A stretch of 64,000 bases of DNA from Gammaproteobacteria bacterium (GTDB lineage Bacteria; Pseudomonadota; Gammaproteobacteria; CBDBNL01; JAAOII01), in NCBI GenBank assembly GCA_965207945.1, contig OZ242303.1:1280935-1344934 (forward strand). The letters are read 5' to 3'. The translations under genes were made by a program, and so were the position numbers. Positions 4,822-22,578 of the stretch are shown here, piece after piece. Every line of letters starts with the position of its first letter. Within the stretch, counting starts at the first letter, position 1. The notes below the pieces were generated by a model that was given only the letters and a program-made list of their open reading frames with translations, ran no database searches and was not told the DNA's origin.

Positions 4822-5925
4822 GTGTTAATCAGCATAATAATCCCCACCTATAAGGAGGCGCCAAACCTAACTCCTCTATGCACCAGCATAGCCGAAGAGT
4901 TCAACTCCATCAAGTATGAAATTCTCATAATGGATGATGACTCACAGGACGGCTCGGATAAGGTGGTTGCCGAATTGCAAAAGCAGGAAATCCCAGTTAG
5001 CATAATCAACCGCAAGGGGCACAAACGCGGACTTTCTGCAGCAGTGATTGACGGCTTGCGCATTGCCAAAGGGGACTATTGCGCTGTTATGGATGCAGAC
5101 CTCTCTCATCCAGTGTCTTCTATCAAACCAATGTTAGACAAATTGCAACAAGGCGAAGTGGATTTTTGCTTGGGCTCGCGCTATGTTGATGGCGCTTCTA
5201 TTGATATCCAATGGACTCTCAAACGGAGAGTTATCTCTATGGTTGCCACTTTGCTGGCTGTCCCGCTGAGTAAAATTAAAGACCCTATGAGTGGCTTCTT
5301 CCTGCTTGCCAGCAAGAATGTGCCGCCAATAAACAAGCTATCGCCATTGGGATATAAGATTGCTTTGGAACTTATAGTCAAGGGCGGCTTTGACAAGATA
5401 TACGAACATCCCATTCATTTTAGCGAGCGCCTGCATGGCAACAGCAAGATGAATGTGCGGCAACAATTCTATTATCTCAGGCATCTGCGGCGTCTGTACC
5501 AATATAAGTATCCAACAATGTCGGAGTTTTTACAATTTGGCATGGTGGGGGGCAGTGGCTTTGTGGTGGATGTGACATTCTATTATATGTTTCAATCATT
5601 GTTTGGCATGAGTCATCTCGCGGCGCGGGCTGCATCCTTTTGGCTGGGGGCATCATGGAACTGGTACTGGAATCGGACGGTTACATTTTCTGAATACTTC
5701 AAAGCCCACCCAGTAAAACAGTGGCTCAGTTTTGTGTTTGTAAGTATCTTTGGCTTTGTTATCAACTGGGGGCTTTATTCATTGCTAACTATCAATGTTG
5801 CTTTCTTTGATGAATATAGAATACTTGCGCTGTTGCTCGGCGTGTTGGGCGGCATGGGTTTTAACTTTATGTTTTCACGCATCTTTATATTCCGCCATAT
5901 TGAAGAGGATGAGGGGGAGAAATAA
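4822..5925 (+). CDS. GT2 glycosyltransferase with C-terminal GtrA-like membrane domain (dolichol-phosphate-mannose-synthase/ArnC-like)
   Basis: GTG start. IIIPTYKEAPN...LIMDDDSQDGS...DADLSH GT2 motifs, then C-terminal hydrophobic GtrA-like segments. The stop overlaps the valS ATG (TAATG). Confidence 0.75.
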   Translation: MLISIIIPTYKEAPNLTPLCTSIAEEFNSIKYEILIMDDDSQDGSDKVVAELQKQEIPVSIINRKGHKRGLSAAVIDGLRIAKGDYCAVMDADLSHPVSSIKPMLDKLQQGEVDFCLGSRYVDGASIDIQWTLKRRVISMVATLLAVPLSKIKDPMSGFFLLASKNVPPINKLSPLGYKIALELIVKGGFDKIYEHPIHFSERLHGNSKMNVRQQFYYLRHLRRLYQYKYPTMSEFLQFGMVGGSGFVVDVTFYYMFQSLFGMSHLAARAASFWLGASWNWYWNRTVTFSEYFKAHPVKQWLSFVFVSIFGFVINWGLYSLLTINVAFFDEYRILALLLGVLGGMGFNFMFSRIFIFRHIEEDEGEK

Positions 5926-8900
5926 TGGATAAAAACTTCAACTCAAAAGAAATAGAAGCGCGCTGGTCTAAATACTGGGAGGATGAGGACTTGTTTGCCC
6001 CCTCTGGAACTGGCGAGCCCTACTCCATAGTCATCCCTCCTCCCAATGTTACTGGCACTCTACACATGGGGCACGCCTTCCTCAACACCATCATTGACAC
6101 CCTCATCCGCTACCAACGGATGAATGGCAAAAACGTGTTGTGGCAGATGGGCACCGACCACGCCGGCATAGCCACTCAGATGGTAGTGGAAAGACGACTC
6201 GCAGCGCAAGGCAAAGACAAACGGGATATGGGAAGGGAAAAATTCTTAGCGGAAGTGTGGAAGTGGAAAGATATGTCATCGGGCACCATAGAAAAACAAC
6301 TACGCCGACTTGGCGCCTCAGTGGATTGGAAAACCAGCAGGTTCACTATGGACGATGCCTACATCAACTCGGTTATTGAAGCATTTGTGCGCCTACACGA
6401 GAAGGGCTTGGTGTATCGCAGCAAACGTCTGGTTAACTGGGACCCAGTCCTACAAACCGCAGTATCCGATTTAGAAGTGCGCGCCGTAGAAGAACCCTCT
6501 ACCCTATATTACATCCGTTATCCGTTCGTAGACGACCCTACTAACAAATCCTGCATGGTCATATCAACCACCCGACCAGAAACAACCCTGGCGGACGGCG
6601 CAGTTGCCGTCCACCCCGATGACGAACGTTATAAATCAGCGGTAGGCAGAATGGTGCGTGTCCCCGGCACCGACAGAATCATCCCCGTAATAGCCGATGA
6701 ATATGTAAAACCCGACTTCGGCTCCGGCTGTGTAAAAATAACTCCAGCACACGACTTCAACGATTACGAAGTGGGTCAAAGGCATACCATGGAAACAATA
6801 AACCTATTCACCAAAGACGCCCACCTCAACGAAAACGCCCCGCCCGCCTACAGAGGCATGGATAGATATGAAGCCCGCACCAAGATTGTGCAGGACTTCA
6901 AACAACAAGGACTCCTCGCAAAAGAAGAAAAGCACAGCTACAGCCCACCACGTGGCGACCGCAGTGGCGTTATATTGGAGCCGTATCTAACCGACCAATG
7001 GTTCATCAAGATGGACACCATGGCACAGCGCGCCATCAAGGCAGTGCAGGACGGCGAAACAAAGTTCGTCTCACCAATGTGGGAAAAAGTATATTACAAC
7101 TGGCTCAACGAAATCCAGGACTGGTGCGTAAGCCGCCAACTATGGTGGGGACACCGCATCCCCGCTTGGTATGATGAGGACGGCAAGCCGTATGTGGGAC
7201 GCAGCCAAGAAGAAGTGCGCGCCAAACACAACCTTGATAGCAGCGTGAAACTGCGCCAGGACGAAGATGTGCTTGATACCTGGTTCTCCTCAGCACTATG
7301 GACTTTTGCCACCATGGGCTGGCCCCATGAAAGTGGCGGGAATGAAAGCGGCGGAAAAGAAAACAACAGACAACAAACCTTCAACCCCACTGATTTATTA
7401 GTAACTGGTTTTGATATTATCTTCTTCTGGGTAGCAAGAATGATTATGGCAACCCTATGCCTAAAAGACGAAGTCCCCTTCCGCAATGTCTACATCCACG
7501 GACTAGTGCGCGACGGCGAAGGACAAAAGATGTCTAAATCCAAAGGGAACATCTTAGACCCTCTGGATATTATTGACGGAGTTGAACTGGAAGAACTACT
7601 GCGCAAACGCACCACAGACATGATGCAGCCAGACAAAGAAAAATCCATAGCCGCCGCCACCAAGAAACACTTCCCCGATGGCATCGCCGAACACGGCACC
7701 GACGCCCTAAGATTTACCTTCTGCGCTATGGCATCAACTGGACGCGACCTCAACTTTGACACATCCCGCTGCATCGGCTACCGCAACTTCTGCAATAAAC
7801 TATGGAATGCAACTCGTTATGTCCTGATGCAGTGCACAGATGCAGACAGAATGGCTGCCACAGACAAACCAACAGGCACCTCCAATATCATTGACCAATA
7901 CATGCAATGGCATTTTGAAATAGTCACCACTGAAATTAGAAATTCACTGGACAACTACCGTATTGACCTAGCAGCCCAAGCCCTCTATGAGTTTGTATGG
8001 CACGAATTCTGCAACTGGTACATCGAATTCACCAAACCAATCTTAGCAGGCGATGACGAACAAGCAAAAGCATCTACCAAGCAAGGACTACTAAGCATGT
8101 TAGACAACATTCTGCACTTAGCCCATCCCTTTATTCCCTTCATCACCGAAGAGACATGGCAACACCTGCATGCAGGGAATAAAAGTAAAAGTGTAAAGAG
8201 CATTATGGTGAGCCAATTCCCACAACATGCTCCCAAAAGTACTGAAGAAATAGATAAAGGAAATAAAAAATTTGCCGCAGTCGCCTGGATGAAAGAGTTC
8301 CTTCAAGGAGTTCGTGTTCTACGCAGTGAATTAAACATCTCCCCCAGCATCTCACTGGAGTTAATATTAGTTAGCGATGATAAAAATGAAGCACGATGGT
8401 TGGAAGAATATGCAGACATAATAAAGCCAATAATCAAATGCAATAAGTTAAGCTCACTAACAACTACTTCTACTAAAAAACCAGCAGCAATAGCCCGCTT
8501 AGCAGGAAAAGGCGAGGTCTTGATGCCAATAACGGCAAACAATCGACCGGGCATCAACAGAGAAGAAGAAGAAAAAAGATTACGGAAAAAGCTTACTATT
8601 GCTGAAGAGAATATCGTCAAACTCAACAACAAACTCAACAACAAAGGATTCACCAATAAAGCTCCTGACAACATAGTTAAAGGAGTTGAAAGAAAACTAG
8701 AAGAACAGGAAGACGCCTGGAATAAAATTAGCACGCAACGTATAGATTTTATAAAAGCTATGAACTCTCTTGATAAAGACAAGGATACTGTCCACGATAA
8801 TGTTGCAGATATGCTCAAGAAAGCTTCACAGATTCCAATAAATTATGCAGATATGCTCAATAATATTTCGCAGACTCAAAAGAATTATGCAGATATGCTC

Positions 8901-11117
8901 AAGAATATTTCGCAACCTCCAATGAATTATGCAGATATGCTCAATAATATTTTGCAGACCCAAAAGAATCATGCAGATATGCTCAAGAATATTTTGCAAC
9001 CTCCAATGAATTATGCAGATATGCTCAATAATATTTTGCAGACCCAAAAGAATCATGCAGATATGCTCAAGAATATTTCACAACCTCCAATGAATTATGC
9101 AAATATATTCAAGAATATTTTGCAGACTCAAAAGAATCATTCAGATATGCTCAAGAATATTTCGCAAACTCCAATGAATTATGCAGATATGCTCGATAAT
9201 ATTTCGCAGACTCGAAAGAATGCAGCAAATATACACAAGAACGTTTTACAGGCTCAAAAGAATGCTGCAGATCATGCCAAGAAAAATACTAAGATTCACA
9301 GCGATGATGCAGAGTTTTATTATAATCAAGGTCTTGCTAAATATACATCAAAAGAGTACAGAGGGGCTATTGACGATTTCACTAAAGCCATTAAAATTAA
9401 ATCTAATCATGTAAACGCTTACTATAATCGAGCCACTACAAAAAGTAAATTAAAAGATTATAAAGGTGCTATCGAGGATTTAACTAAAGCCATTAGGATT
9501 AAACCTAATAATGCACATGCTTACAATAATCGCGGCTACGATAAGTATGAATTAAAAGATTATAAAGGAGCTATTGATGATTTCACTAAAGCCATTAAGA
9601 TTGAACCTAATAATGCTACTGCTTACTATAATCGTGGAAATACTAAAAATCAATTAAAAGATTATCAAGGAGCTATCGATGATTATACTAAAGCTATTAA
9701 GATTGAACCTAATAATGCAAACTATTACTATAATCGTGCTAACACCAAAAGTCAATTTAAAGATTATAAAGGTGCCATTAAAGATTTTACTAAAGCTATT
9801 AAGATTAACCCTAAGAATGCGGATACTTACAATGATCGCGGTGGTGTTAAGAATGAATTAAAGGATTATAAAGGAGCTATAAAAGATTTTACTCAAGCTA
9901 TTAAGATTAACCCTAATTATGCATATCCTTATTATAATCTGGGCATCATTAAAACTAAATTAAAAGATTATAACAGCGCTATTGATTACTTAACTAAAGC
10001 TATAAAGATTAACCCTAAGCATTCACATCCCTATTATAATCTGGGCATCATTAAAACTAAATTAAAAGATTATAAAGGAGCTATTGATTACTTTACTCAA
10101 GCTATTAATTTTGATATCAAAAATGTAAATGCATATTATAATCGTGGTAATGCCAAATTAAAATTAAAAGATTATAAAAGTGCTATTAATGATTATACTG
10201 AAGTCATTAAGATTGATCCCAAAAACGTAAATGCTTACAATAATCTTGGTATGACTAGATATCAATTAAAAGATTACAAAGGTGCTATTAATGATTTAAG
10301 TCAAGCAATTAAGATTAAACCCAAACTTGTAGAATCTTACAATAACCGCGGAAACATTAAAAATCAGTTACACGACTATAAAGGAGCTATTGATGATTTC
10401 ACTAGTATTATTGAGATTGAACCGAATGATGTAGATGCTTACTATAATCGCGGTAATGCCAAATTAAAATTAAAAAATTATAAAAATGCTATCATTGATT
10501 ATAGTAATGCCATTAAGAATAATCCTAACTATGCGTATGCTTATATTAATAGAGGCTCAGCCAAATCTGAATTAGAGGATTATAAGGGCGCAATTAATGA
10601 TTATACTAATGCTATTAAGATCAAACCAAAACTTGCAGCAGGTTATAATAATCGTGGAAATACTAAAGGTAAACTAAAGGATTATAGAGGTGCTATTGAT
10701 GATTTCACTAATGCCATTAATATTGAACCAAATAATGCAGATACTCACAGCAACAGAGGAAAGATTAAAACTCAATTAAAGGATTACAAGGGTGCTATTG
10801 ATGATTATACCAACGCTATTAATTTTAATCCAAATAATGCAGATTTTTATAATAATCGTGGAGCCGCTAAATTTGAACTAAAAGAATATCAAGGGGCACT
10901 TGATGATTATAATAAAGCTATTGAGCTTGCTTCTAACAATGCAGTTGCTTATTATAATCGAGGTGAAGTTAAAGACAAATTAAAAGATTATAAAGGTGCC
11001 ATTAAAGATTGTCAACAAGTGATAGAGCTAACTGAGGGTAGGGATTTAATAGACGAAGAAATTAAAGTCCGCAAGTTAGCCCAAGAACTCCTACAAGAAT
11101 TACAAAGTAAGAAGTAA
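5925..11117 (+). CDS. valS: valyl-tRNA synthetase fused in frame to a 14-aa tandem-repeat array and about 17 TPR repeats (1730-aa ORF)
   Basis: Class I aaRS HMGH (PPPNVTGTLHMGHAF) and KMSKS motifs, and a ValRS C-terminal coiled coil ending about aa 945 (...RIDFIKAM). There is no stop there. The frame continues through about 10 copies of NYADMLNNISQTQK / NYADMLKNISQPPM and then 34-aa TPR units (AYYNRGNAKLKLKDYKGAIDDYT..). GC drops sharply at the junction. Confidence 0.8.
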   Translation: MDKNFNSKEIEARWSKYWEDEDLFAPSGTGEPYSIVIPPPNVTGTLHMGHAFLNTIIDTLIRYQRMNGKNVLWQMGTDHAGIATQMVVERRLAAQGKDKRDMGREKFLAEVWKWKDMSSGTIEKQLRRLGASVDWKTSRFTMDDAYINSVIEAFVRLHEKGLVYRSKRLVNWDPVLQTAVSDLEVRAVEEPSTLYYIRYPFVDDPTNKSCMVISTTRPETTLADGAVAVHPDDERYKSAVGRMVRVPGTDRIIPVIADEYVKPDFGSGCVKITPAHDFNDYEVGQRHTMETINLFTKDAHLNENAPPAYRGMDRYEARTKIVQDFKQQGLLAKEEKHSYSPPRGDRSGVILEPYLTDQWFIKMDTMAQRAIKAVQDGETKFVSPMWEKVYYNWLNEIQDWCVSRQLWWGHRIPAWYDEDGKPYVGRSQEEVRAKHNLDSSVKLRQDEDVLDTWFSSALWTFATMGWPHESGGNESGGKENNRQQTFNPTDLLVTGFDIIFFWVARMIMATLCLKDEVPFRNVYIHGLVRDGEGQKMSKSKGNILDPLDIIDGVELEELLRKRTTDMMQPDKEKSIAAATKKHFPDGIAEHGTDALRFTFCAMASTGRDLNFDTSRCIGYRNFCNKLWNATRYVLMQCTDADRMAATDKPTGTSNIIDQYMQWHFEIVTTEIRNSLDNYRIDLAAQALYEFVWHEFCNWYIEFTKPILAGDDEQAKASTKQGLLSMLDNILHLAHPFIPFITEETWQHLHAGNKSKSVKSIMVSQFPQHAPKSTEEIDKGNKKFAAVAWMKEFLQGVRVLRSELNISPSISLELILVSDDKNEARWLEEYADIIKPIIKCNKLSSLTTTSTKKPAAIARLAGKGEVLMPITANNRPGINREEEEKRLRKKLTIAEENIVKLNNKLNNKGFTNKAPDNIVKGVERKLEEQEDAWNKISTQRIDFIKAMNSLDKDKDTVHDNVADMLKKASQIPINYADMLNNISQTQKNYADMLKNISQPPMNYADMLNNILQTQKNHADMLKNILQPPMNYADMLNNILQTQKNHADMLKNISQPPMNYANIFKNILQTQKNHSDMLKNISQTPMNYADMLDNISQTRKNAANIHKNVLQAQKNAADHAKKNTKIHSDDAEFYYNQGLAKYTSKEYRGAIDDFTKAIKIKSNHVNAYYNRATTKSKLKDYKGAIEDLTKAIRIKPNNAHAYNNRGYDKYELKDYKGAIDDFTKAIKIEPNNATAYYNRGNTKNQLKDYQGAIDDYTKAIKIEPNNANYYYNRANTKSQFKDYKGAIKDFTKAIKINPKNADTYNDRGGVKNELKDYKGAIKDFTQAIKINPNYAYPYYNLGIIKTKLKDYNSAIDYLTKAIKINPKHSHPYYNLGIIKTKLKDYKGAIDYFTQAINFDIKNVNAYYNRGNAKLKLKDYKSAINDYTEVIKIDPKNVNAYNNLGMTRYQLKDYKGAINDLSQAIKIKPKLVESYNNRGNIKNQLHDYKGAIDDFTSIIEIEPNDVDAYYNRGNAKLKLKNYKNAIIDYSNAIKNNPNYAYAYINRGSAKSELEDYKGAINDYTNAIKIKPKLAAGYNNRGNTKGKLKDYRGAIDDFTNAINIEPNNADTHSNRGKIKTQLKDYKGAIDDYTNAINFNPNNADFYNNRGAAKFELKEYQGALDDYNKAIELASNNAVAYYNRGEVKDKLKDYKGAIKDCQQVIELTEGRDLIDEEIKVRKLAQELLQELQSKK
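8841..9290. repeat. 42-bp coding tandem repeat array (about 10.5 units, two alternating variants, 84-bp higher-order period)
   Basis: Repeat unit aattatgcagatatgctcaa(t/g)aatatttcgca(g/a)(a/c)c(t/c)c(a/c)aa(a/t)g seen directly. It lies inside the valS-TPR ORF. Confidence 0.85.
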
Positions 11118-11179: not shown

Positions 11180-13990
11180 TCACCTTATCAATCTCAGCAA
11201 TTTCTTTATATCTTTTCTAGCAAAATTTATAAGTTGTAGATTAATCATATCTTTTAACTCTTCATTTTTATATCTTGCTTTCATAAATTTAACTAATTTT
11301 TTATTATCGTTATTCTCTAGAATATAGACAAGAATATCGCGGATTTTATTCGAAATTATAGATATATTTTTCCCTTCATCCAAAAAGAAAAATTCATAGA
11401 TATATAAGAGATTATCTGTGTATTCTGTTTTAGCAAATAAATCACTTTCAAATTTTTTCATAAAATTTATATTTTCTACTACATTCAATCTAAGTAATCC
11501 CTCATAAAACATCTCTCTTATGTCACTATTATTATTAACTAAATCCCTTATTGGTGAATAAATATGTATATGAGAAAATAGGACTCTACAAGTTTCAATA
11601 AAAAAATTAACCATATTCCTTAAATAATTTTTATTATTTTTAATAATATCTGTATATAAAAAATTAGTGGAGACGCCACCATCATCATAAATTTTATGGT
11701 GTTTAAATAAAAATAGAATTAATTCCTGTATTAGAATAGGGCAACCATATATTCCTGATTTTGGTGTTTTTTCAAGTAACTTTGTAATATATAAAATTAA
11801 CTGATCTATAGCCTCGCATAAAGAATCTATATTATCAAAATTATTAAATCTTGGGATATCTAAATTACTTTTATCAAATGAGGGTATAAGTTCTCCTGCT
11901 GATACTAATTCATTATTAAATAAATAATGTAATTCTTTATAAAAGTCATTAAGATATATTATGTTATTTTCATTAATAAACGCAATATCAATACCATCAA
12001 TTATAAAAGTAATAATATTTTCTATTTCTAAAGATTTTAATTTATTCTTTTTAATAGTTTCTTTATTATTCTTACCATATAAATAATTAACAGTCCTATT
12101 ATCACAATGAAATTTATAATATGTTGTATATAAGGTTCCCAATTTATTTCTAATAAAATCATCATTTAAATTATTAATAAACGATTCTAATCCATAAATC
12201 CAAATATAACTATAATTATCAAATTTAGATCTAAAATTTTGAGACAATAAATATTCGACAGACCATAATTGGTAAAATTTATCATAAGATAATTTAAGTA
12301 AATAGTCTAAACCAAACTTATTATTAGAAGCCATAAATTGAAAGAAATAATCTAATTTATCTGGATTAATATTATCGATTACTTCAAATGAATTAAGGTC
12401 AAAAACACTTCTAATCTTAGTTAGTTGACTACTATTTAATTCCCTTATATTATGCACTTCTAAAATAGTTTCAAATATTTTCACAGCGCTAGTGTTAAAA
12501 GTTCCTCTTTGTAATTCTTTATTAAATTCTTCAATTAAATATATAATCATATCATCAAAAAATTCTGGATTATTATTAAGATATATATTTAAATTCACGT
12601 AATCTAAATTATTAATTAAATCAATTAATTCTTGTGATACTAACGAAGCGCTATCAATATTCCTTATTATTTTCTCTACTATAAAAATATCCGATTGCTC
12701 AATAATCCTTCCTACTCTATGAAAAAATATCTGTTGCTCATCTCCGATATAGTATTTTAATTGTTTAATCTTATACGGATAATTACCTATCCTACTATAT
12801 AAATCTAACCACTCCTCTCTAATTATTAACAATATTGTTATTAAACTCTGATTATTCTCTACAAATCGATTACTTGTTTTACTTTCTACAAATTTAAGTT
12901 CCACCATCAAATTATTTAAAATTTTTATAATCCTTCTTGGGTTAGCGGCATATTCTTTTGCAATGATATCTACTGTATGTGGATTTAAACCTAAACTATA
13001 AATCATATTTAATTTATTAATATATGTAAATAAGTCAATATCTTTAAAATACTTAATATTAATAGCTACATTAAAAAACCTATCCAAAAACTCTTTTGAT
13101 TCTTTTATACTAGAATTAATATTCTCTTCATTAATATTATTCCTGATAATTAAGTTCTTCATAAGTAATTCATCATCAATAGGAACTAGAAGTATTACAC
13201 CATTTTGATTAGATAGAAAATTTTTAACGTTAGTTAAAAGTTCATAAGATTTTTCACTATCACATCTATCTATGTTATCAATAACAATAACAATTTTATC
13301 AAACTTACCTGAAATTAACAAATCTGAAGAGTTACCATTTAATAATTTATTCAGTAATTCTTTAATAGAATGTTCAAATTGCTCAGGAGCAAAAAATTTA
13401 TTATGTTTAATAGTTTTTTTATATATATTAGAAGAATTATCTATAACTTTGTATACAATTAAAATAACTATTGGTATTAACGTAAAAATAGTGACGTCTC
13501 CAAGAGTAATATTTAATTCTATACCTATTAGTTTTAGTAAATAATATATGCTTACTAATAACATGACTGGTATCAATGCAAGAGTAACTATATTTTTTAT
13601 AATACTCTTGATGGTGAATTCTTTATCTGTTATTTCTACTGTTTTATCTTGGTACAGATCATAATTTTCATCAAGGTCATCAGGATTTAAAAAATTTTGT
13701 AACTTTAATAAAAATATTTTTTTAAATGAATCTCCGGAATACTTCCAAGCATCATATACAATAAATTTAAATTTTTGATTTCCTTTATCTTTTTTGTGTT
13801 CTAACTCTTCTTTGACAGTTTTTACTATTGAGGACTTTCCTGTACCCCACTTACCAAATAAACCTATTGTGTATCCCTCCCTAGATGATAAAATCATCTC
13901 TTTAATGGTATTGGCATATCTTTTTGTTTCTAATAAATCTTTATCATTTAGATTTATTTCCTCATCAGGAATAAAATTTATCTTTTTCAT
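11180..13990 (-). CDS. KAP-family P-loop NTPase (936 aa)
   Basis: Walker A LFGKWGTGKSS followed by FIVYDAWKYSGD (KAP signature FDAWKYxxD). Two hydrophobic TM helices are inserted in the NTPase domain (IVTLALIPVMLLVSIYYLL...IFTLIPIVILIVY), as is typical for KAP. Very AT-rich. Confidence 0.75.
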   Translation of the reverse strand: MKKINFIPDEEINLNDKDLLETKRYANTIKEMILSSREGYTIGLFGKWGTGKSSIVKTVKEELEHKKDKGNQKFKFIVYDAWKYSGDSFKKIFLLKLQNFLNPDDLDENYDLYQDKTVEITDKEFTIKSIIKNIVTLALIPVMLLVSIYYLLKLIGIELNITLGDVTIFTLIPIVILIVYKVIDNSSNIYKKTIKHNKFFAPEQFEHSIKELLNKLLNGNSSDLLISGKFDKIVIVIDNIDRCDSEKSYELLTNVKNFLSNQNGVILLVPIDDELLMKNLIIRNNINEENINSSIKESKEFLDRFFNVAINIKYFKDIDLFTYINKLNMIYSLGLNPHTVDIIAKEYAANPRRIIKILNNLMVELKFVESKTSNRFVENNQSLITILLIIREEWLDLYSRIGNYPYKIKQLKYYIGDEQQIFFHRVGRIIEQSDIFIVEKIIRNIDSASLVSQELIDLINNLDYVNLNIYLNNNPEFFDDMIIYLIEEFNKELQRGTFNTSAVKIFETILEVHNIRELNSSQLTKIRSVFDLNSFEVIDNINPDKLDYFFQFMASNNKFGLDYLLKLSYDKFYQLWSVEYLLSQNFRSKFDNYSYIWIYGLESFINNLNDDFIRNKLGTLYTTYYKFHCDNRTVNYLYGKNNKETIKKNKLKSLEIENIITFIIDGIDIAFINENNIIYLNDFYKELHYLFNNELVSAGELIPSFDKSNLDIPRFNNFDNIDSLCEAIDQLILYITKLLEKTPKSGIYGCPILIQELILFLFKHHKIYDDGGVSTNFLYTDIIKNNKNYLRNMVNFFIETCRVLFSHIHIYSPIRDLVNNNSDIREMFYEGLLRLNVVENINFMKKFESDLFAKTEYTDNLLYIYEFFFLDEGKNISIISNKIRDILVYILENNDNKKLVKFMKARYKNEELKDMINLQLINFARKDIKKLLRLIR

Positions 13991-14539
13991 ATAATCTAAT
14001 TAATTTTTTCATTAAAATTCATAGAGTCAAGAACTTCAGTAGATGGACTTTACCCAACCTATGACAAGTAGATAAGATCCGAGCCGACTCAACAATCATC
14101 TTCACAACATGCTTATCATTATGATAAACAGCGTAAACTTGAGGATCCCTATCTAAGAAAAATATATTCATTTTATACTTCACAATATAACATAATTACA
14201 AAGAGTTCTGACCAATAACCATACACAGCTCATATTTCCAGGACGAGGTATGTCCGCTCAGCATCCAGTTTGATGCTTGGAATAAAATATCAGCATACTT
14301 GTAATTAACTAGATTAAAATATAATGTATAATCATATCTATAATTGAATTAAAATATCACCAAATATTACATGAAAATATTTATAAAATTGGTAATAAAT
14401 ACAAACAATCAATCCTTTGGAATCAGTTATCCTGACCACAAAAGATTATTTATACCACTCTACCCCCAATATTTATCACCCATACAATTCAATATCCTAT
14501 CTCCAAATATTATCTACAAAATAACTACTTAATAAAATC

Positions 14540-15589
14540 ATGAACCAAGATCCTAATACACCAAAACCTGTTAAGCAAATGAGTGAAGAAGAAATTATAA
14601 ATCACATTGAAAGCAAAACAAAGAAACATATTGAAACAAAGAAAAAAGAAATGGAGGAGTTTGTCCAAAGTAAAATTAAAGAGATTGATGATAAAAAACA
14701 AGAAATTGATAAATATTGGAAAGGATCTCAAGATTCTTCAGGAAATCCTATTATAGGAATGGAAAAATACATGGATAATAAAAAAAATGAAATAGATGAG
14801 TATTGGGAAGGCAAAAAGGATGAAGAAGGTGTTAGAAAAGGAGGAAAGCAAGAATATATTAATAATCAACACAATAAAATAAACGAGTTTTGGGAAGGCA
14901 AAGAGGAGGAAGAAGGAAATAAAACAGGAGGAATGGAAGAATACATGAATAATAAAAAAAATGAAATAGATGAGTTCTTGGAAGGTAAAGAGGATGAAAA
15001 CGGCATTATAGAAGAAGGAATGAAAAAAACTATGAAGGGTTTAAAAGATCGTATAGAAGAATTACTTGAAGGCGCAATCCGTGCTAGTCTTGCATCAGCA
15101 TATGGGAAAAAAGCTCGACGACATAGAATGTTAGCAATAATATATACAATTCTATTTGTAGTCATAATTTTAGCTTTCTTCTCTCTCGCGATAGCTGTGA
15201 TAATATTTGCAGAAGCTGACGGAAAAATATATGGTACTTCTATCTTTGCTATTCTCGCACCAATGACTACTGCAGGTATCTTACTATGTCTATTCTTTAG
15301 TAATAAACAAAGGGAAGAAAGACGAATAGAAGAAGAATACTCACATAAAGAGATGATAACAACTGTTTTCGAAGCTTACAAAAGAGAAGTAGAAAAACTT
15401 GGCGAAGGAGAGGATACTAAAAAATTAATGTTAACAATATATGAAAATATAATAAAAAGCGCAGATTATAACCCGAGTAGATACATCGGTAAATATGATA
15501 CTCCGCACCCATTATTCGGTATATTTAAACCAAAACAAGAAAATAATAAAAATATTACCGATGATATTAAAAAGAATATTACCGATTAA
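14540..15589 (+). CDS. hypothetical membrane protein with 3-4 N-terminal approx. 30-aa repeats (NKKNEIDEYWEGKKDEEG...) and two C-terminal TM helices
   Basis: Repeats GMEKYMDNKKNEIDEYWEGKKDEEGVRKGG, KQEYINNQHNKINEFWEGKEEEEGNKTGG and MEEYMNNKKNEIDEFLEGKEDENG. TM segments MLAIIYTILFVVIILAFFSLAIAVIIFA and ILAPMTTAGILLCLFF. No recognisable family. Confidence 0.55.
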   Translation: MNQDPNTPKPVKQMSEEEIINHIESKTKKHIETKKKEMEEFVQSKIKEIDDKKQEIDKYWKGSQDSSGNPIIGMEKYMDNKKNEIDEYWEGKKDEEGVRKGGKQEYINNQHNKINEFWEGKEEEEGNKTGGMEEYMNNKKNEIDEFLEGKEDENGIIEEGMKKTMKGLKDRIEELLEGAIRASLASAYGKKARRHRMLAIIYTILFVVIILAFFSLAIAVIIFAEADGKIYGTSIFAILAPMTTAGILLCLFFSNKQREERRIEEEYSHKEMITTVFEAYKREVEKLGEGEDTKKLMLTIYENIIKSADYNPSRYIGKYDTPHPLFGIFKPKQENNKNITDDIKKNITD

Positions 15590-15833
15590 CGCAAATATAA
15601 AATTATAGTTTAAGCAGAAAATACTTAGCCATTTGATTCTATAACAAATTAATAATACCATAAATAATATGTATAACTATGTGTGATCCATATTACGCAA
15701 GGTTGCCCTTCATAAATATTCATATAAAATATCTCCCCATAATTATTTTTACAATTACTTACAATAGGTCGCAAAAATTTAGCATACAGTTATTGATTTT
15801 AAGGTGACTATAATGGCACTAAATAATGCCCAT

Positions 15834-17621
15834 TTATTTTTTTAGAGCAGGCCAGACTTTCACCGCTTGTTCGTATAAGAACTCTCCTCTTTTTTGTATT
15901 TTATCTTCATTCCAAGTATCAGAGCCAAGAAATCTATCGTCAACAAAAGTTTTTATTCCTTTAGCATATTCTTCTAATCCATTTTTTCCATCTTTTCCAG
16001 ATTTTTTGATTTCCCATGCATCATTATTAATTGAATTATTTAATTTGGAAGACAGTATAGTCAAATTACCCATCATTAATATCTTTTCATTACGTACTCT
16101 TTCATCTATTCCATTTAATGGCCAGTTTTTTTCCCACTTTTTAGGCATTATATGTTCTATTTGGTAATCGTCAAATCTAAGCAAACTAGTGCAATCTTTC
16201 TTATTCCGCATTGATAATTCTAAAAGATAAAGAACTGATTTAGAATAAGAGCTAATTAATTTAGATTCCATAAATCCCTTTTTAAATTGTTCATCATTAG
16301 GAAACTCTTCTGTTTTAGCAATTCCTATAAATCGTTGTTTTAATTTTTCTAGGGTATCTACTTTCCCAGAAATAAAACTATTAAATACCACACCATAATG
16401 TTTAGCGCTCCCCTTACAAACTGCGCGTCTAACAAAATAATTCACTAATAAATCAAACATTTTATCTTGTTCATCTTGCACCTTTACATTAACTAATATA
16501 AATAACAAATAAGGAATAATAGGGGTAACAGGAATACCAAAAGTAACTATATTTATCTTATCGGAAAAGGAGCCAAAATCAACTTGTTCGTACAGTTTTT
16601 TGTAATTAATCTTTTCTTTATATATTTCTGATTTCTCAATAATATCATGAATGAATTTTTTATCTCCAGATTTAATCTTATTAATAAGGAGGTAATTTTT
16701 ATATCTATCATACAGTTTGTCTATAGTAATTGGTTTATCCTTAGTTACTGACTTATTCTTTGTTACTGGCTCATCCTTATTTGCTAACTTATCTGCATTA
16801 ATGGTTTTATCATCTGTATAGGATTTTAATAATAAAAAAGATTGTAAGAAAAAATCAATGTTTTTACGCTTATTTTTTCCCGTGCCTATACCAGCACCCC
16901 AAAAATTTTTCTCATCCTCTTCAAAGTATTTCCGCCATGTCTTTTTATATAAATCCCAGCTAGACTCATCAGAATTGAATAATAGATTTTTTAATAGTTC
17001 TGCGGTAGTAAGAGAAACTCCAATAGAATTAAGGGTATCAAAAATTTGTTGCTCGTCCTCTTTTTCGTCTAAGTCTATCCCTATAAAATAAATCTTTGAT
17101 AAAAGAGATTGCCAGTCCTGAATATTTGACTTTGGTATAATATTTTTTTCAAAATATTTATAGCATTTTAGAACTTTATTATCAACATATTCACTTTCAA
17201 TGTCTGTATTTAATTCTCCATTAATTATAGTTTCAAATATTTCTCTATCATTATGATTATGTTCAAGAATTATTTTATTATCTGTTATACTGGAAAACAA
17301 CATATTCTTTAAACTGTCACCATTTTTTTCTAACTTACTAGCCACACACTTATATAATAAAAAAATAGAAGTTAATCTTTGTTGACCATCAATCAAAGAA
17401 CGAACCTCTCCAATTTCTTTATTCATTGGAGTCTTTTGTTGCTTTAATATAATAGGTCCCATAAAATAATTAGGGATATCATTATCAATCAAATTATGAA
17501 TATCATCTAAAAACCTTTCCCAGTGTTCTTCTTCCCAGACATAGCTCCTTTGAAAGAATGGAATTTGGATTATTCTGTGTGGATTTAATACATCCGCTAA
17601 ATTTATTCGCCCTTCTTTCAT
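15834..17621 (-). CDS. DUF262 (ParB-like) + DUF1524 (HNH/His-Me) protein, GmrSD/SspE-like type IV restriction endonuclease
   Basis: N-terminal IQIPFFQRSYVWEEEHW (DUF262 DGQQR/FQR motif; IDGQQRLTSIFLL is also present) and C-terminal DDYQIEHIMPKKW (DUF1524 His-Me finger). Confidence 0.75.
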   Translation of the reverse strand: MKEGRINLADVLNPHRIIQIPFFQRSYVWEEEHWERFLDDIHNLIDNDIPNYFMGPIILKQQKTPMNKEIGEVRSLIDGQQRLTSIFLLYKCVASKLEKNGDSLKNMLFSSITDNKIILEHNHNDREIFETIINGELNTDIESEYVDNKVLKCYKYFEKNIIPKSNIQDWQSLLSKIYFIGIDLDEKEDEQQIFDTLNSIGVSLTTAELLKNLLFNSDESSWDLYKKTWRKYFEEDEKNFWGAGIGTGKNKRKNIDFFLQSFLLLKSYTDDKTINADKLANKDEPVTKNKSVTKDKPITIDKLYDRYKNYLLINKIKSGDKKFIHDIIEKSEIYKEKINYKKLYEQVDFGSFSDKINIVTFGIPVTPIIPYLLFILVNVKVQDEQDKMFDLLVNYFVRRAVCKGSAKHYGVVFNSFISGKVDTLEKLKQRFIGIAKTEEFPNDEQFKKGFMESKLISSYSKSVLYLLELSMRNKKDCTSLLRFDDYQIEHIMPKKWEKNWPLNGIDERVRNEKILMMGNLTILSSKLNNSINNDAWEIKKSGKDGKNGLEEYAKGIKTFVDDRFLGSDTWNEDKIQKRGEFLYEQAVKVWPALKK

Positions 17622-17799
17622 AATAGTATATTTATATATTTAGTTAAATTAAAATAGGTAAGCTTAAAAATTACCTAATGAGTACATTATAAACCTTTAT
17701 ATATTTTTATCTATTCATTTATATATTCTAACCAAGAATATATAATACTCTATAATAACAACGTATAGAATAATCGACTAATCGCAAAATATTAAATAA

Positions 17800-19302
17800 A
17801 TGACGCATACTTTTATAAAAGACGAAGAGCTAATTGAAGAAAGCTATCAAATAGAAGACCTGTTGAACTTCAAACCTATTATCAATGACTTCAAAGAAAG
17901 GATTAATAAGATCAAGAAAAATTCAATTGTCGGTCTCATTGGACCTTATGGTTCTGGTAAGAGTACTATGCTTTATCAAATATATAAAGATAAAATTAAT
18001 ATAAATAATGAAAATAAGGATGAAGCAAATAACCATCAAACCTCAGAAAATGAGGGCAACGAACAGACAGAACAATGGTTTGTTTTTGATGCTTGGAAAT
18101 ACCCAGAGCGTAAGGACTTATGGGAGGGGTTTGTTTTAGATATAGCAAAGCAACATGATAAGATATCATTTGATAAAGCAAGAAATAAAATTGATGGCAA
18201 ACAAGGAGAGCGTAAAGAAAATGCCACTAATACGATGATAGACATGGCTACTATAACAATGGGTGTAATTTCTCTTTTCTCATCAGCAGGCCTTACTTCT
18301 ATATTCGCTCCAATAATTGGTTCACTTAAAAATTTAACTTACCTTTTCAGAACTTCTCCCGTAAGAAGAGTATTTGAATTTCAAGAACTACTATCTGATA
18401 TCATCAAAGAAACAGAGAATCATATTTTTATAATTATAGAAGATATAGACAGATCAGGAGATATGGGAATATTTTTTTTAGAAACCCTTAAACATTTCAT
18501 AAAGAATCTCAAGGAAGACCCAAATCGTAAAGTAATAGTCATAGTACCAATAGGGAATGATACCTTCTATAAATATCACCCTACTCGGGACTCTTACTTA
18601 AAAATTTTAGATTATCAAATCTCCTTCAACTCTTCATTATTAAACTTTACTAAATTTATTGAAAATACTATAGATATTGATATAGCTATTGAAAATTTTA
18701 AGAATGCAAAAGAAAAATCAGAAATTGAAGCTGCCATGGAACTTGGAACTCCAGACAATATGATTAAAAAAGAAAGTAAGTATACAGATTTATTCCTACA
18801 AAAAATGTTTATAACGCACATTCGTTACCTTTTTGAAACCATGATTTTAAATGAAAGACAAGGAACTATCCGTGATATTAAAAGTATACTTAGAAAAGTA
18901 AATTCAAATTTTAATGAACTAGATGAAGATATAAAAAAATTAATAGATATAAGAATACTAATGCTATTTACAGCCATAGGGCATTTTTATAGAGGTGAAG
19001 AAAATGATCCATGTAGTTTCTTCGCTGTTCAACGCGATTCCTCCCACCCTGAAAATATAGTTACGTGGGCTAACGATAAATTTTGGGGTAAAGATTTTTT
19101 TATAATGATCATGCAGGAAAAACCAAATATTGATGAAATTAAACTTAAAAAGTTTACTATTGATACCGTCAATACTGGACCTCTTATAATAAGTAATCCA
19201 GTAGATGAATATGAAGATAGAGATACTTACTATATTATGGACATCTATTTTAAGATTACTAAAGTCCATATTAACTATCTTCCAAAAGGTTCTAAACTCT
19301 AA
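17800..19302 (+). CDS. KAP-family P-loop NTPase (500 aa)
   Basis: Walker A GLIGPYGSGKST, KAP motif WFVFDAWKYPERKDLW, and an inserted TM segment MIDMATITMGVISLFSSAGLTSIFAPIIGSL. Confidence 0.75.
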   Translation: MTHTFIKDEELIEESYQIEDLLNFKPIINDFKERINKIKKNSIVGLIGPYGSGKSTMLYQIYKDKININNENKDEANNHQTSENEGNEQTEQWFVFDAWKYPERKDLWEGFVLDIAKQHDKISFDKARNKIDGKQGERKENATNTMIDMATITMGVISLFSSAGLTSIFAPIIGSLKNLTYLFRTSPVRRVFEFQELLSDIIKETENHIFIIIEDIDRSGDMGIFFLETLKHFIKNLKEDPNRKVIVIVPIGNDTFYKYHPTRDSYLKILDYQISFNSSLLNFTKFIENTIDIDIAIENFKNAKEKSEIEAAMELGTPDNMIKKESKYTDLFLQKMFITHIRYLFETMILNERQGTIRDIKSILRKVNSNFNELDEDIKKLIDIRILMLFTAIGHFYRGEENDPCSFFAVQRDSSHPENIVTWANDKFWGKDFFIMIMQEKPNIDEIKLKKFTIDTVNTGPLIISNPVDEYEDRDTYYIMDIYFKITKVHINYLPKGSKL

Positions 19303-19424
19303 ACACAATAGCTATTAATTGTATTTTAGGTATTACGTTATAATTCCAGTATAAACACTATCCTTTACCTAGCACTAATAAATATATTTACCTAATATAA
19401 TATCCCCCTCCTACATCCCCACCC

Positions 19425-20624
19425 TCAATCCACAAACACACCATCAAAAAAATTAACAATATCAGCATTAATCTCAAGTAAAAATTCTCTTCTATCAAAT
19501 CCTTCTGGATCTCTGGCACCGGGGAAATCTATCTCTTTTAGCAACCATTCAGGAAATGGTGGTACAAAAGCATAGTGATGCACTCCTTCATATACCTTAT
19601 AGATATGTTCTCTTGTGCCAAGCGATTTATGCAGATGCTCGGCATGAAATGGAAACTTAAGCACATTATCATCTCCTAATCTATATATAGCTATATCTGC
19701 ATTGGAGTTTTGAATTTCCTCTGCTGTAAAAATAACTGCAGCTGGGGCTACCACCGCAATTGCTTTAAACGGCACGGGCGATTCAAGTGGTTCAAACTCT
19801 GGACTAAACTTTCTATCATCAGTTGGAGTTCTCTTTCCAATTCTCTTAACTATTCCCTGGATTGTTACACGGATAATCCCTTTAAACCAAGTCAATGTCT
19901 TTTTCCACCATGGTCCTGAACCACTACATGCTGGGTCTTTGGCTGCATTGTTGCTACAGTGCGTTATAAATTGTTGCATGCTGGGAGTTATCCCGCTTGT
20001 GGCAAGCACTGTCAGCCCTCCTAAAGAATAGCCGAGCGCCCCAATATTATCATCGTCCATTATCTGTTTTATAGTGGCATCTGACTCAGCAACCTCCAAC
20101 GTATGTGATAACTCATCTATCCTAATATTTATGACGGGGAATAGTTGCCTGCCTTTTTTCAACAACTGATCATTGCTATGTTGAGGCGCAATTACTACAT
20201 AGCCGGCTCTTGCAAGCTCCGCAGCTGTCCCGCGATGATTTCTGTAACGTCCCATTACCCCATGAGAAAGCAATATAACTGGATATTGCCCCGCCGCAGG
20301 TTCGCCCTCCCAAGCCCATTTAGGACGGAAAGGTCCCCACTCTTGCTCAAACTCCTCAGCAAAACTTGGATACCATACCCCCAACTCTAAGCCGCTTTCG
20401 CCTAATCCCCCTACTTCTTCTATAATCATAAACCCAGCATTATATTTTTCCTGCGCGGACGCAAGTTGCCCCGCTACGACCACAAGAAGTATAAAGCAAA
20501 GTTTAATTAAAAAAGATGAATAGATTGTGCGCAAGTTATAACTCGCCACTAAGGTTGTAATATACACACCGCAAATAGTGCGAGCTGATTGTATACCTGA
20601 CTGCATATAATTATTGATTAACAT
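19425..20624 (-). CDS. secreted/membrane-anchored alpha/beta-hydrolase (dienelactone hydrolase / PAF-acetylhydrolase-like)
   Basis: N-terminal hydrophobic signal-anchor, nucleophile elbow GYSLGG (GxSxG), and VILLSHG. GC is higher than in the neighbouring defence genes. Confidence 0.6.
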   Translation of the reverse strand: MLINNYMQSGIQSARTICGVYITTLVASYNLRTIYSSFLIKLCFILLVVVAGQLASAQEKYNAGFMIIEEVGGLGESGLELGVWYPSFAEEFEQEWGPFRPKWAWEGEPAAGQYPVILLSHGVMGRYRNHRGTAAELARAGYVVIAPQHSNDQLLKKGRQLFPVINIRIDELSHTLEVAESDATIKQIMDDDNIGALGYSLGGLTVLATSGITPSMQQFITHCSNNAAKDPACSGSGPWWKKTLTWFKGIIRVTIQGIVKRIGKRTPTDDRKFSPEFEPLESPVPFKAIAVVAPAAVIFTAEEIQNSNADIAIYRLGDDNVLKFPFHAEHLHKSLGTREHIYKVYEGVHHYAFVPPFPEWLLKEIDFPGARDPEGFDRREFLLEINADIVNFFDGVFVD

Positions 20625-20769
20625 AGTTCCTCTGTTGTTAATGTATAAAGATAGTATTATATATGATTTTGGTTGGTTATAAGTAGTTCATCAAACTAAT
20701 AAGTATATTGGAGCGGCTACCTAGCCATCCTGTTAAATTTTTAGATTAAATACTAATAATTATAATTTT

Positions 20770-22578
20770 CTACTGTTCAGATAATTTTGCTTCCAAGAAT
20801 TCAAATATTTTTCTAAATTTATCTTTAGTTATTTCATCAAATGTAAATTCATCTTTTGAAATATACAAATTTTCAATTGCAGTATTAAGCATTTTTTTAT
20901 GATTCCCGTTCAACTCATTATCACCATAATAGCTTTTAATTATTTTATCTCTTTCTGTTTCGGTAAATAAATTTTCTATTCTATATTTTTTCCAGTTACT
21001 ATCAATGGACTCAAAGGTGAAAATTTTATTTGCGATATCTGATGTAATATCATGAATATATTGCGCTCTTGCTTCTTGGCCTCCTTTATCTGAATCAAAT
21101 AGTGCAATAAATTTTTTATTCCATGCGATATACAAACGAAAAATTTGATCATACTTATTAGCTCCTCCACCAGGGTAAAAATTAATATCATATTTTTTTT
21201 CAAATATAACTTCAGAGAAGTACTTAAATACGTAATAATCATTTTTACCCTCTGTAAAAACAATAGATTTAACTAACTCAAGTTTGCTAGGGCAGTATTG
21301 AAGTGCATCAAGTATTGGCTTAAAATGAGTTTCATCATTTTTACCATTAGCAACAAAATTTTTATAGAGAGTTGCATCTATATCAGTTTCCGTCACATTA
21401 GACTCTCCAATATCAGAATAACTAATTGCTTTATTATTAACAATAAATGTTCCAGGTAACCATATAGGGTTTATTAGATGATGACTATGTGTTGAATATA
21501 TTAGTTTACAATTAGAAACAATTTTTCCTAAAGTTAGTAATAATTTCTGTTGAGAACTTTGATGTAAATTACTTGCTGGCTCATCCAGTAAAAATAAAGT
21601 CTCTCCTGGATCACTTGAACGAGATTTACGAAATACTGTAAATATTAAGAAACTAAAGAACCAGCTAAATCCTAAACTTCTTTCATCTATAAAATAACTA
21701 TCATCCCCCTGCTTAATTTTTAATGTAAGATAATAATTATTATCCTCTGCATGTTCATATTTTAATACCACCTCTTTCATACTAGTAGTACCAAAAATTT
21801 GCTCCCACTTTCGTAGTATTTCATTATTAAGCTTAGCTAATATTTTATTTAATAATGATTCTAGTGCATCTTTAGTACCCTCATCTGTTGCTTTCATTCT
21901 ATTTAATAAACTTTCCTCAATACTCAAATTATCTCCGATAGATTTTAAAATATCGGCAATAATTTGTCTATATTCTTGTTGCTCAGGACTTGCATTATCC
22001 AATTCCTCTAAATAAATTTTTCGTGGGAATCTAAAAAGAAAATCTTGATAATATAGAATTTTAGGTAAATATTTTTTGTTAATTAAATTAACAACATCTT
22101 TCCAGGCCTTGTGATCTTTATAATCATATAATTTTTTATTCTTTTTACCTTTGCTAGATTTACCCCAAATATTTAATCCATATATATTATTTATCCAATT
22201 ATTCTCACAAGGTTCTGAACTTTTAAATTTATATTCCCTACTAATAGTTATAAAACCCTTTATTTTCTCAATATTAAAATTATGATTGAATTTTAAATAT
22301 TTTTTAATTTCTTCTATCTCATATTCTGCAAATTCAAGTTCTGCTCGAATGCAAACAATATCATTGAATTCATGTTTTAAGCTTTTAGGAATTAATGTAT
22401 GAATATCTTCTTTATTAATACCATTTCTAAAAACATTAATTGCTTCTAATATTGAAGTTTTACCGCTTTCATTAAGTCCAACTAAAGTAAAAATATTTAG
22501 GTTAGATTTATTTTTTAAATCCAACTCAATTTTAGTAATACCTTTAAAATTAATTATTGTAAATTTTGTATATTTCAT
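20770..22578 (-). CDS. OLD-family nuclease: N-terminal ABC/AAA ATPase + C-terminal Toprim domain
   Basis: N-terminus KFTIINFKGITKIELDL..NIFTLVGLNESGKTSILEAI (OLD/AAA_15-type Walker A). C-terminus VFTEGKNDYYVF and FDSDKGG (Toprim E and DxD motifs). It lies 35 bp downstream of and co-directional with the res gene. Confidence 0.7.
   Translation of the reverse strand: MKYTKFTIINFKGITKIELDLKNKSNLNIFTLVGLNESGKTSILEAINVFRNGINKEDIHTLIPKSLKHEFNDIVCIRAELEFAEYEIEEIKKYLKFNHNFNIEKIKGFITISREYKFKSSEPCENNWINNIYGLNIWGKSSKGKKNKKLYDYKDHKAWKDVVNLINKKYLPKILYYQDFLFRFPRKIYLEELDNASPEQQEYRQIIADILKSIGDNLSIEESLLNRMKATDEGTKDALESLLNKILAKLNNEILRKWEQIFGTTSMKEVVLKYEHAEDNNYYLTLKIKQGDDSYFIDERSLGFSWFFSFLIFTVFRKSRSSDPGETLFLLDEPASNLHQSSQQKLLLTLGKIVSNCKLIYSTHSHHLINPIWLPGTFIVNNKAISYSDIGESNVTETDIDATLYKNFVANGKNDETHFKPILDALQYCPSKLELVKSIVFTEGKNDYYVFKYFSEVIFEKKYDINFYPGGGANKYDQIFRLYIAWNKKFIALFDSDKGGQEARAQYIHDITSDIANKIFTFESIDSNWKKYRIENLFTETERDKIIKSYYGDNELNGNHKKMLNTAIENLYISKDEFTFDEITKDKFRKIFEFLEAKLSEQ

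Follow-up and report, generated by a model that had tools for sequence, protein, structure and literature searches.

The window analysed here, a stretch of 64,000 nucleotides of contig OZ242303.1 from a Gammaproteobacteria bacterium (assembly GCA_965207945.1), contains a block of four neighbouring genes that encode two KAP-family NTPases (KAP1 and KAP2), a repeat-containing membrane protein, and a GmrSD-type restriction enzyme. The original prediction proposed that this block is one membrane-associated defence module. According to our analysis, the block probably consists of four autonomous, separately transcribed genes in a horizontally acquired defence island of ~30 kb, rather than of one system. 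Their adjacency would reflect the piling up of defence genes in a hotspot and not joint working.

Organization of the block

The four open reading frames (ORFs), whose coordinates in our ORF check match those first reported exactly, run in the strand order -, +, -, + from KAP1 via the membrane protein and GmrSD to KAP2, with gaps of 549, 244, and 178 bp between successive genes. Since the strands alternate, the block does not form an operon and each of the four genes represents its own transcription unit. A promoter and terminator scan yields 62 promoter-like sites versus 67.5 expected and is uninformative in such AT-rich DNA.

The block is embedded in a low-GC island of ~30 kb (about 8.5-38.8 kb of the window) with 22-37% G+C, while the flanks display 41-52% G+C; in round values, the contrast is one of 25-30% to ~45%. 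The island is bounded by valS on one side and by cca, the gene for the CCA-adding enzyme, on the other, and tRNA and Rfam scans detect no tRNA or Rfam RNA inside it. Based on Pfam and PADLOC, the remaining island genes code for a 399-aa dienelactone hydrolase-like protein, an OLD-family ATPase/TOPRIM protein, and a type III restriction system comprising res and two mod paralogs. Further island genes are a TPR gene, McrBC, two FRG-TPR genes, and a duplicated N-terminal fragment of McrB. The region is a classical defence island, and the defence setting assumed for the block is supported by its position in low-GC DNA dense in defence genes.

Conservation of the gene neighbourhood

Co-occurrence of the block genes is confined to five loci of one narrow clade of gammaproteobacterial metagenome-assembled genomes, namely L001-L004, which are contigs of one metagenome, and L005 from the GTDB genome 'Gammaproteobacteria bacterium' (2.06 Mb). 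All of them have the valS-linked island in common. The run membrane protein (+), GmrSD (-), KAP2 (+), and hydrolase (-) is present in the window and in L004, where KAP1 is absent. L001 also keeps GmrSD, KAP2, and the hydrolase, with a pentapeptide-repeat gene in place of the membrane protein gene. In L002, L003, and L005, KAP2 paralogs adjoin the hydrolase or other KAP2 copies and have no adjacent GmrSD. Between the window and L004, the synonymous divergence (dS) of valS (0.37) resembles that of GmrSD (0.40) and KAP2 (0.45), and the shared gene order is thus the expectation of vertical inheritance.

Outside the clade, the partners separate. None of 50 KAP2 loci contains a GmrSD, hydrolase, membrane protein, or KAP1 homolog within 10 kb, as determined by BLASTP and a profile hidden Markov model (HMM) of GmrSD. 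Analogously, 80 metagenomic KAP1-family loci show no membrane protein or KAP2-type neighbour, and GmrSD occurs in only three of them. A divergent pair of membrane protein and KAP1 was considered as well and rejected, as the 80 KAP1 loci hold no membrane protein homolog and L004 lacks KAP1. Beyond shared ancestry, homologs of the four genes essentially never co-occur elsewhere, which is the outcome that the original prediction had named as refuting it. With alternating strands, partners that separate outside the clade, and a relative without KAP1, the four-gene module is not sustained. The picture of two KAPs bracketing a restriction gene reflects island packing and shared ancestry and no new system. 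The earlier observation was largely right, and its interpretation was right on defence but wrong on the module.

Several points weigh against reading the genes as autonomous. Within the clade, the run is conserved in the window and L004, and its part GmrSD, KAP2, and hydrolase in L001 as well, with protein identities of 74-87% and 66-67%, so that the divergent GmrSD and KAP2 genes may form a lineage-specific functional pair. Many metagenomic loci are short, with at least 2 kb on both sides in only 26 of the 80 KAP1 loci, and ORFs were called with genetic code 11, which may fragment genes of code-25 Gracilibacteria. Moreover, an effector domain is visible neither in the two KAP proteins nor in the membrane protein, and the mechanisms proposed for them below consequently rest on analogy.

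The first of these points leads to an alternative, in which GmrSD and KAP2, possibly together with the membrane protein and the hydrolase, constitute a clade-specific two- to four-gene system. Here, KAP2 would back up or guard the restriction enzyme in the manner of PrrC and other restriction-linked ORFs of type I loci, and both genes would be governed by the common control region of 178 bp. The divergent GmrSD(-)/KAP2(+) pair with its downstream hydrolase in the window, L001, and L004 fits this idea, as does a general functional link between KAP proteins and restriction, given that both KAP families recur in or beside restriction systems. However, ancestry in the same valS-adjacent island, with the similar dS values given above, explains the run, GmrSD is missing from the surroundings of the 50 distant KAP2 loci, and three members of the clade itself carry KAP2 paralogs apart from GmrSD. 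Furthermore, where KAP2 has a restriction partner elsewhere, this is a type I enzyme and not GmrSD, and such loci amount to only about 12%. We therefore regard a dedicated GmrSD-KAP2 system as unlikely.

Genomic contexts of the KAP families

In a set of 76 genes directly next to distant KAP2 homologs, HsdR is the most common domain (6), followed by AbiEii-like ATPases, HsdS, Shedu SduA_C, and Fic. In four loci (L021, L025, L028, and L046), a KAP2 relative separates hsdS from hsdR, and the genes are only a few bases apart. Among the 106 neighbours of KAP1 homologs, the most frequent are resolvases (5), ResIII/HsdR, RloB, and integrases (4 each), as well as GmrSD_N and D12 methylases (3 each). 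Besides the recombinases and RloB, type I, type III, or type ISP restriction-modification (R-M) genes flank the KAP1 homologs, with clear hsdM-hsdS-KAP-hsdR or type ISP layouts in L066, L064, L090, L130, and L101. Contexts of this kind, seen in both families, are typical of defence genes that act autonomously and settle in R-M loci and mobile islands. As a side observation, the R-M-inserted relatives of both families come from unrelated phyla and typically show the order hsdM-hsdS-KAP-hsdR with only a few bases between genes, sometimes with a HEPN or AbiEii-like ATPase gene alongside.

These neighbourhoods also bear on a second alternative. Here, only GmrSD would be defensive, and a decaying mobile island would carry both KAP proteins and the membrane protein as cargo or for its maintenance, with roles such as membrane-complex assembly, exclusion of plasmids or integrative and conjugative elements, or addiction. 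The many resolvases and integrases next to KAP1-family genes are in line with this view, as are the occurrence of the membrane protein module as cargo of a Tn7-like transposon, the lack of a recognizable effector domain, and doubts about the primary role of PifA in the literature, as quoted in PMC13552941. In contrast, members of both KAP families occur inside R-M operons and among defence genes, diverse KAP NTPase genes have been shown to block phage (PMC13552941), and the KAP2 paralogs display a hypervariable-sensor pattern typical of immune receptors (see below). A pure cargo role is in our opinion very unlikely. The coordinates of all features are compiled in Table 1.

Table 1. Positions of the block genes, their features, and further loci. 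Positions refer to the window unless another locus is given, and those of KAP relatives in R-M loci include the surrounding R-M genes; transmembrane (TM) segments are called from Kyte-Doolittle hydropathy in 19-residue windows.
Feature	Locus	Position	Strand	Details
KAP1	window	11180-13990	-	936 aa
KAP1 Walker B	window	13265-13282		IDNIDR, residues 237-242
KAP1 predicted TM hairpin	window	13454-13591	-	residues 134-152 and 161-179, between Walker A and B; hydropathy 2.47 and 2.43
KAP1 Walker A	window	13829-13855		GKWGTGKSS, residues 46-54
Repeat membrane protein	window	14540-15589	+	349 aa
Repeats of membrane protein	window	14653-15073		four copies of 87 nt (29 aa)
C-terminal 2-TM module	window	15047-15586		
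Predicted TM hairpin of membrane protein	window	15149-15298		residues 204-222 and 235-253; hydropathy 3.37 and 2.29
GmrSD	window	15834-17621	-	595 aa
GmrSD EHIMP	window	16143-16157		residues 489-493
GmrSD DGQQR	window	17376-17390		residues 78-82
KAP2	window	17800-19302	+	500 aa
KAP2 hydrophobic loop	window	18205-18339	+	residues ~136-180; site where canonical KAP proteins have TM helices
Hydrolase unit	window	19417-20704 (gene 19425-20624)	-	399 aa, DLH-like alpha/beta hydrolase with N-terminal signal/anchor, plus ~75 bp upstream
Hydrolase copies	L001	3062-4338, 11560-12841		
Hydrolase copy	L002	8583-9871		
Hydrolase copy	L004	11215-12414		
Hydrolase copy	L005	8586-9872		
KAP1 ortholog	L003	4052-7009		at least six ORF fragments
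KAP2 relative between hsdS and hsdR	L021	1699-9590		
KAP2 relative between hsdS and hsdR	L025	5013-13956		
KAP2 relative between hsdS and hsdR	L028	6436-14405		
KAP2 relative between hsdS and hsdR	L046	842-6288		
KAP1 relative in R-M locus	L066	3451-12532		
KAP1 relative in R-M locus	L090	3677-12447		
KAP1 relative in R-M locus	L130	1592-11222		
Module member WP_020752723.1	L149	4332-5588		418 aa, hypothetical protein
valS	window	5925-11117	+	valyl-tRNA synthetase gene with low-GC tail
valS tail, 42-nt repeats	window	8708-9379		
valS tail, TPR units	window	9213-11042		~18 units of 102 nt
TPR unit in island genes	window	30602-31240, 34763-36418, 36514-37986		70-76% nt identity
OLD-family gene	window	20770-22578	-	
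mod paralogs	window	25620-28010, 28123-30411	-	
McrB	window	32821-34554		
McrB-like ORF	window	38073-38822	-	249 aa

GmrSD is an intact type IV restriction enzyme by sequence

The 595-aa protein matches the Pfam profiles GmrSD_N (2.1e-36, 126.4 bits; cutoff 33.2) and GmrSD_C (4.3e-20, 72.4 bits; cutoff 23) in one chain, which corresponds to a DUF262/ParB-like NTPase domain at the N-terminus, followed by a His-Me finger nuclease domain of the DUF1524 type at the C-terminus. In PADLOC, it is matched by Orf5 (3.3e-58), HEC-06 (1.3e-51), and mREase_IV (1.2e-27). The family is defined by the motif (I/V)(I/V)DGQQRLT and by His-Me finger residues (PMC4619093). In the window protein, the former is found as LIDGQQRLTS (residues 76-85), including DGQQR, while the His-Me finger is formed by EHIMP and GNLTIL (residues 518-523). 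With both domains above the gathering score and the motifs in place, the assignment as a DUF262/DUF1524, GmrSD-like type IV gene is upheld, and its sequence features identify the protein as an intact single-chain GmrSD-type type IV (modification-dependent) restriction endonuclease. As judged from family membership, GmrSD would act on its own, with the DUF262 NTPase domain driving the DUF1524 nuclease domain for NTP-dependent cutting of DNA with modified bases.

KAP1 is a membrane-anchored member of a widespread family

KAP1 is recognized by the Pfam profile KAP_NTPase (PF07693) with an E-value of 1.4e-23 and 84 bits (cutoff 20) over residues 23-313. Besides Walker A and Walker B, it contains a YDAWKY motif (residues 79-84) and the hairpin listed in Table 1. 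Profile, motifs, and hydropathy agree with its previous description as a KAP NTPase with Walker A, a DAWKY motif, and TM helices inside the NTPase fold, and they characterize KAP1 as a canonical, membrane-anchored KAP-family P-loop NTPase. The C-terminal region of ~600 aa matches no known domain. A search retrieved 848 homologs, and those of Arcobacter, Aliarcobacter, and other taxa align over the full length at an identity of 32-39%. KAP1 belongs to a widespread family of ~1000-aa proteins with end-to-end conservation, which is also found in Mucilaginibacter and in many metagenomes. The TM hairpin inside the P-loop domain would pin the NTPase to the inner membrane, while its C-terminal region, which is long and helical, is likely, as EF_KAP and PifA suggest by analogy, to serve as a phage sensor or effector that is switched by NTP hydrolysis.

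In PADLOC, KAP1 matches QatA at its N-terminus only (4e-15), PDC-S20 (1.8e-10), and PifA (5.5e-10). Membership in a QatABCD system was rejected, as the NCBIfam QatA model gives 8.2e-17 and 61 bits versus an equivalog cutoff of 600 bits and neither QatB, QatC, nor QatD is encoded nearby; KAP1 adjoins valS and the repeat membrane protein gene, and no Qat matches occur in the flanking genes. Sequence searches of the PDB with both KAP families return matches at the level of Walker A only. In L003, the closest relative, the KAP1 ortholog is split into at least six ORF fragments. This contig is labelled '3x', so that the frameshifts may be assembly errors and are not taken as evidence.

KAP2 is a divergent KAP-type protein with hypervariable segments

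KAP2 contains Walker A (GPYGSGKST, residues 48-56), FDAWKY (residues 96-101), and EDIDRSGD (residues 214-221), and aligns to the N-terminus of KAP1 (BLASTP 3e-7), with which it shares Walker A and DAWKY. The invariant motifs of the family alignment are GxxGxGKST, FDAWKYPxR..LWEGF, and EDIDRSGD..FFLET. While KAP1 is confirmed by the HMM search, KAP2 itself does not match the Pfam KAP_NTPase profile even at E<=10. It can be assigned to the KAP proteins only by way of its family, in which 33 of 35 aligned members match PF07693 (best E-value 2.9e-11). PADLOC additionally reports a match to PifA (2.9e-7).

Of the features claimed for KAP2, Walker A and FDAWKY are present, but the inserted TM helices are not supported. 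The borderline hydrophobic loop at the corresponding site peaks at a hydropathy of 1.72, and in 30 of 35 family members it stays below the TM threshold of 1.6. In the AlphaFold2 model (overall pLDDT 78.7, pTM 0.79), residues 136-179 have a pLDDT of <50 and are mostly coil. In the window copy, this loop has undergone a lineage-specific lengthening of ~16 aa (alignment A1, columns 190-225). Foldseek neighbours of the model are ORC/Cdc6, BrxC, RdrA, and Avs3. From sequence and model, KAP2 is probably a divergent, PifA-like KAP-fold NTPase devoid of TM helices. PifA, which reportedly adopts the KAP fold without TM helices (PMC13001434), provides the precedent for such a protein.

Comparison of the paralogs in the clade reveals a core of 65-83% identity, whereas residues 67-90, 136-180, 291-335, and 401-500 are only 28-37% identical. 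These variable segments, namely the loops and the C-terminal domain, probably set the trigger specificity. KAP2 would operate as a soluble or peripheral switch, in which a conserved ATPase core is combined with hypervariable loops and a C-terminal alpha/beta domain.

A scan of one genome per species retrieved 56 loci of the KAP2 family (400-500 aa; L005-L060). Nearly all of them belong to Patescibacteria, the candidate phyla radiation (CPR), including Saccharibacteria, Gracilibacteria, Parcubacteria, and others, in addition to Zixibacteria, a few Gammaproteobacteria, and Methanobrevibacter. Plasmid and phage collections contain no match to KAP2, and a contig look-up of its exact sequence finds no record. 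Its location in a low-GC island of a gammaproteobacterium with ~45% GC suggests horizontal acquisition.

Hydrolase units accompany KAP2 paralogs

The hydrolase encoded next to KAP2 matches Pfam DLH with 2.1e-7. The unit, consisting of the gene and its upstream segment, is 96-97% identical at the nucleotide level to those of L001 (two copies), L002, L004, and L005. Its dS of 0.06-0.11 is about four-fold below that of valS, GmrSD, and KAP2 (0.37-0.45). The edges of the unit are sharp, and no obvious terminal repeats are seen at them. In the relatives, ~209 bp almost always separate the hydrolase gene from a KAP2 paralog transcribed in the opposite direction, with up to five paralogs per contig. 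Several of the contigs compared are low-coverage assemblies. The near-identity of the units suggests their recent spread or homogenization, which possibly serves the turnover of KAP2 cassettes.

A more far-reaching idea is that the KAP2 family constitutes an uncharacterised class of hypervariable immune-sensor NTPases, short, TM-less, and mostly found in Patescibacteria, which has expanded in this gammaproteobacterial clade into paralog arrays, with as many as five copies on one contig. All copies would be paired with a near-identical secreted hydrolase gene as a recombination anchor for sensor swapping or as a shared effector. More broadly, KAP NTPases might be restriction-linked guards that fire when the neighbouring restriction enzyme is disabled. 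We offer this as a speculation that is quite unlikely to hold.

The repeat membrane protein defines an unnamed family

In the membrane protein, a helical region at the N-terminus carries the EYWEGK-type repeats and is followed by a TM hairpin and by a cytosolic tail that is conserved (RRIEEEYSHKE...NPS, invariant alignment columns). A strict E[IF][DN][KE][YF][WL][KE]G pattern finds EIDKYWKG, EIDEYWEG, and EIDEFLEG, while the third repeat unit reads KINEFWEG in translation. Four repeats and two TM helices match the earlier description as an EYWEGK-repeat membrane protein. The AlphaFold2 model (pLDDT 56, pTM 0.29) is too poor for a structure search.

The C-terminal 2-TM module is present in 838 cluster representatives (E<=1e-3), always at the C-terminus of proteins of 190-540 aa. 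Pfam and PADLOC searches with 14 and 48 family members give no consistent match, and no curated model covers the module. Identity with the SLATT 2-TM effectors was rejected: a single match, PADLOC RTasSLATT at E 0.0084, is restricted to the window protein (1 of 14 members), and Pfam SLATT matches none of the 14 and 48 members. Five distant homologs whose contexts were looked up adjoin a reverse transcriptase, an integrase together with DUF3800, thiamine genes, Schlafen/HepT, and Tn7-like tni genes, respectively, with neither KAP nor GmrSD in these contexts. One module member, WP_020752723.1, is encoded beside TniB/TniQ transposon genes on IncA/C-type resistance plasmids. The window protein is probably a stand-alone member of this unnamed C-terminal 2-TM family and may function as an effector in the membrane or in exclusion; none of our other assignments is as weak.

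Further observations on the island

At the valS-proximal edge, the synthetase gene continues as an in-frame fusion with a low-GC tail of ~690 aa, which is built of 42-nt repeats and TPR units. The relative L003 has a plain valS of 1044 aa, and L002 and L004 have tailed versions. The TPR unit of the tail recurs in three island segments (Table 1).

The two mod paralogs are arranged in tandem upstream of the single res gene. They agree to 98% over the first 300 nt and have identical C-termini, while the centres diverge, a layout compatible with exchange of the target-recognition region. The product of the OLD-family gene combines an ATPase domain of the AAA_15 type (4.9e-22) with a TOPRIM domain that is OLD-like (3.4e-4). 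AriA (7.6e-23) is its top PADLOC match. The gene is solo, and neither a GajB nor an AriB partner adjoins it. The 249-aa ORF at the cca-proximal edge is a copy of the N-terminal region of McrB (42% identity over 222 aa) and is probably all that is left of another McrBC system.

Implications and comparison with known systems

Our results remove a false lead, as the four-gene block is no longer read as a new system. In turn, motifs and boundaries are now available for two well-populated KAP subfamilies, one of ~1000 aa and membrane-anchored, the other of 400-500 aa, TM-less, and CPR-rich. Since both are recurrently wedged in type I R-M operons, they are good candidates for single-gene KAP defences. 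Additionally, a family without a name emerges that is defined by its C-terminal 2-TM domain, comprises 838 representatives, and lacks a curated model. The arrays of hypervariable KAP2 paralogs anchored by the hydrolase gene in the relatives could reveal how bacteria with small genomes diversify their immune sensors.

GmrSD resembles GmrSD, Eco94GmrSD, and BrxU in its fused DUF262 and DUF1524 domains, the DGQQR motif, the His-Me finger, and the location in a defence island, while sequence matches to solved structures reach the N-terminal domain of SspE only. Like the restriction-linked ORFs of the PrrC and RloA/B/C type, relatives of both KAP families are found between hsdS and hsdR, and RloB is among the KAP1-family neighbours. 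In contrast to these, neither KAP gene of the window lies inside an R-M operon, and no anticodon nuclease or other effector domain is present. KAP1 shares the KAP-type NTPase N-terminus with QatA, but scores far under the equivalog cutoff and lacks QatB, QatC, and QatD nearby. Both KAP1 and KAP2 match the PADLOC model of PifA, the T7 exclusion protein of the F plasmid, which KAP2 also resembles in apparently lacking TM helices. However, these matches span only the N-terminal ~100-200 residues of the 720-position model, and there is no relationship between the C-terminal parts.

Tmn, a transmembrane NTPase of the YobI family, is likewise a P-loop NTPase anchored in the membrane, has two TM helices inserted into its NTPase domain, and acts as a single-gene defence. 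Identity of the window KAPs with Tmn/YobI was rejected, as they belong to a different P-loop family and match neither PADLOC tmn nor YobI-ATPase; 4 of 35 KAP2 relatives match YobI-ATPase weakly. Tmn reportedly synergizes with Gabija, and the OLD/GajA-like ATPase-TOPRIM gene of the window is situated 1.5 kb downstream of KAP2.

Further counterparts are single-gene KAP NTPase defences, for which experimental proof dates from 2025-26: EF_KAP and three metagenomic KAPs block phage (PLoS Biol 2026, PMC13552941). The tested proteins have unknown C-terminal regions, adjoin small serine recombinases, and need Walker B and the C-terminal region, and EF_KAP, the sole one tested for abortive infection, does not act that way (PMC13552941). 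In this type, a KAP NTPase domain with an internal TM helix and a long C-terminal region without known domain are combined in one protein, encoded in mobile or defence contexts by serine recombinases, just as the KAP1-family neighbours here include five resolvases. Compared by description only, KAP1 differs in having two TM helices in the domain and ~600 C-terminal residues, while KAP2 is shorter and has no convincing TM helix. As single-gene KAP defences have already been shown, the genes of the block join known kinds of defence genes.

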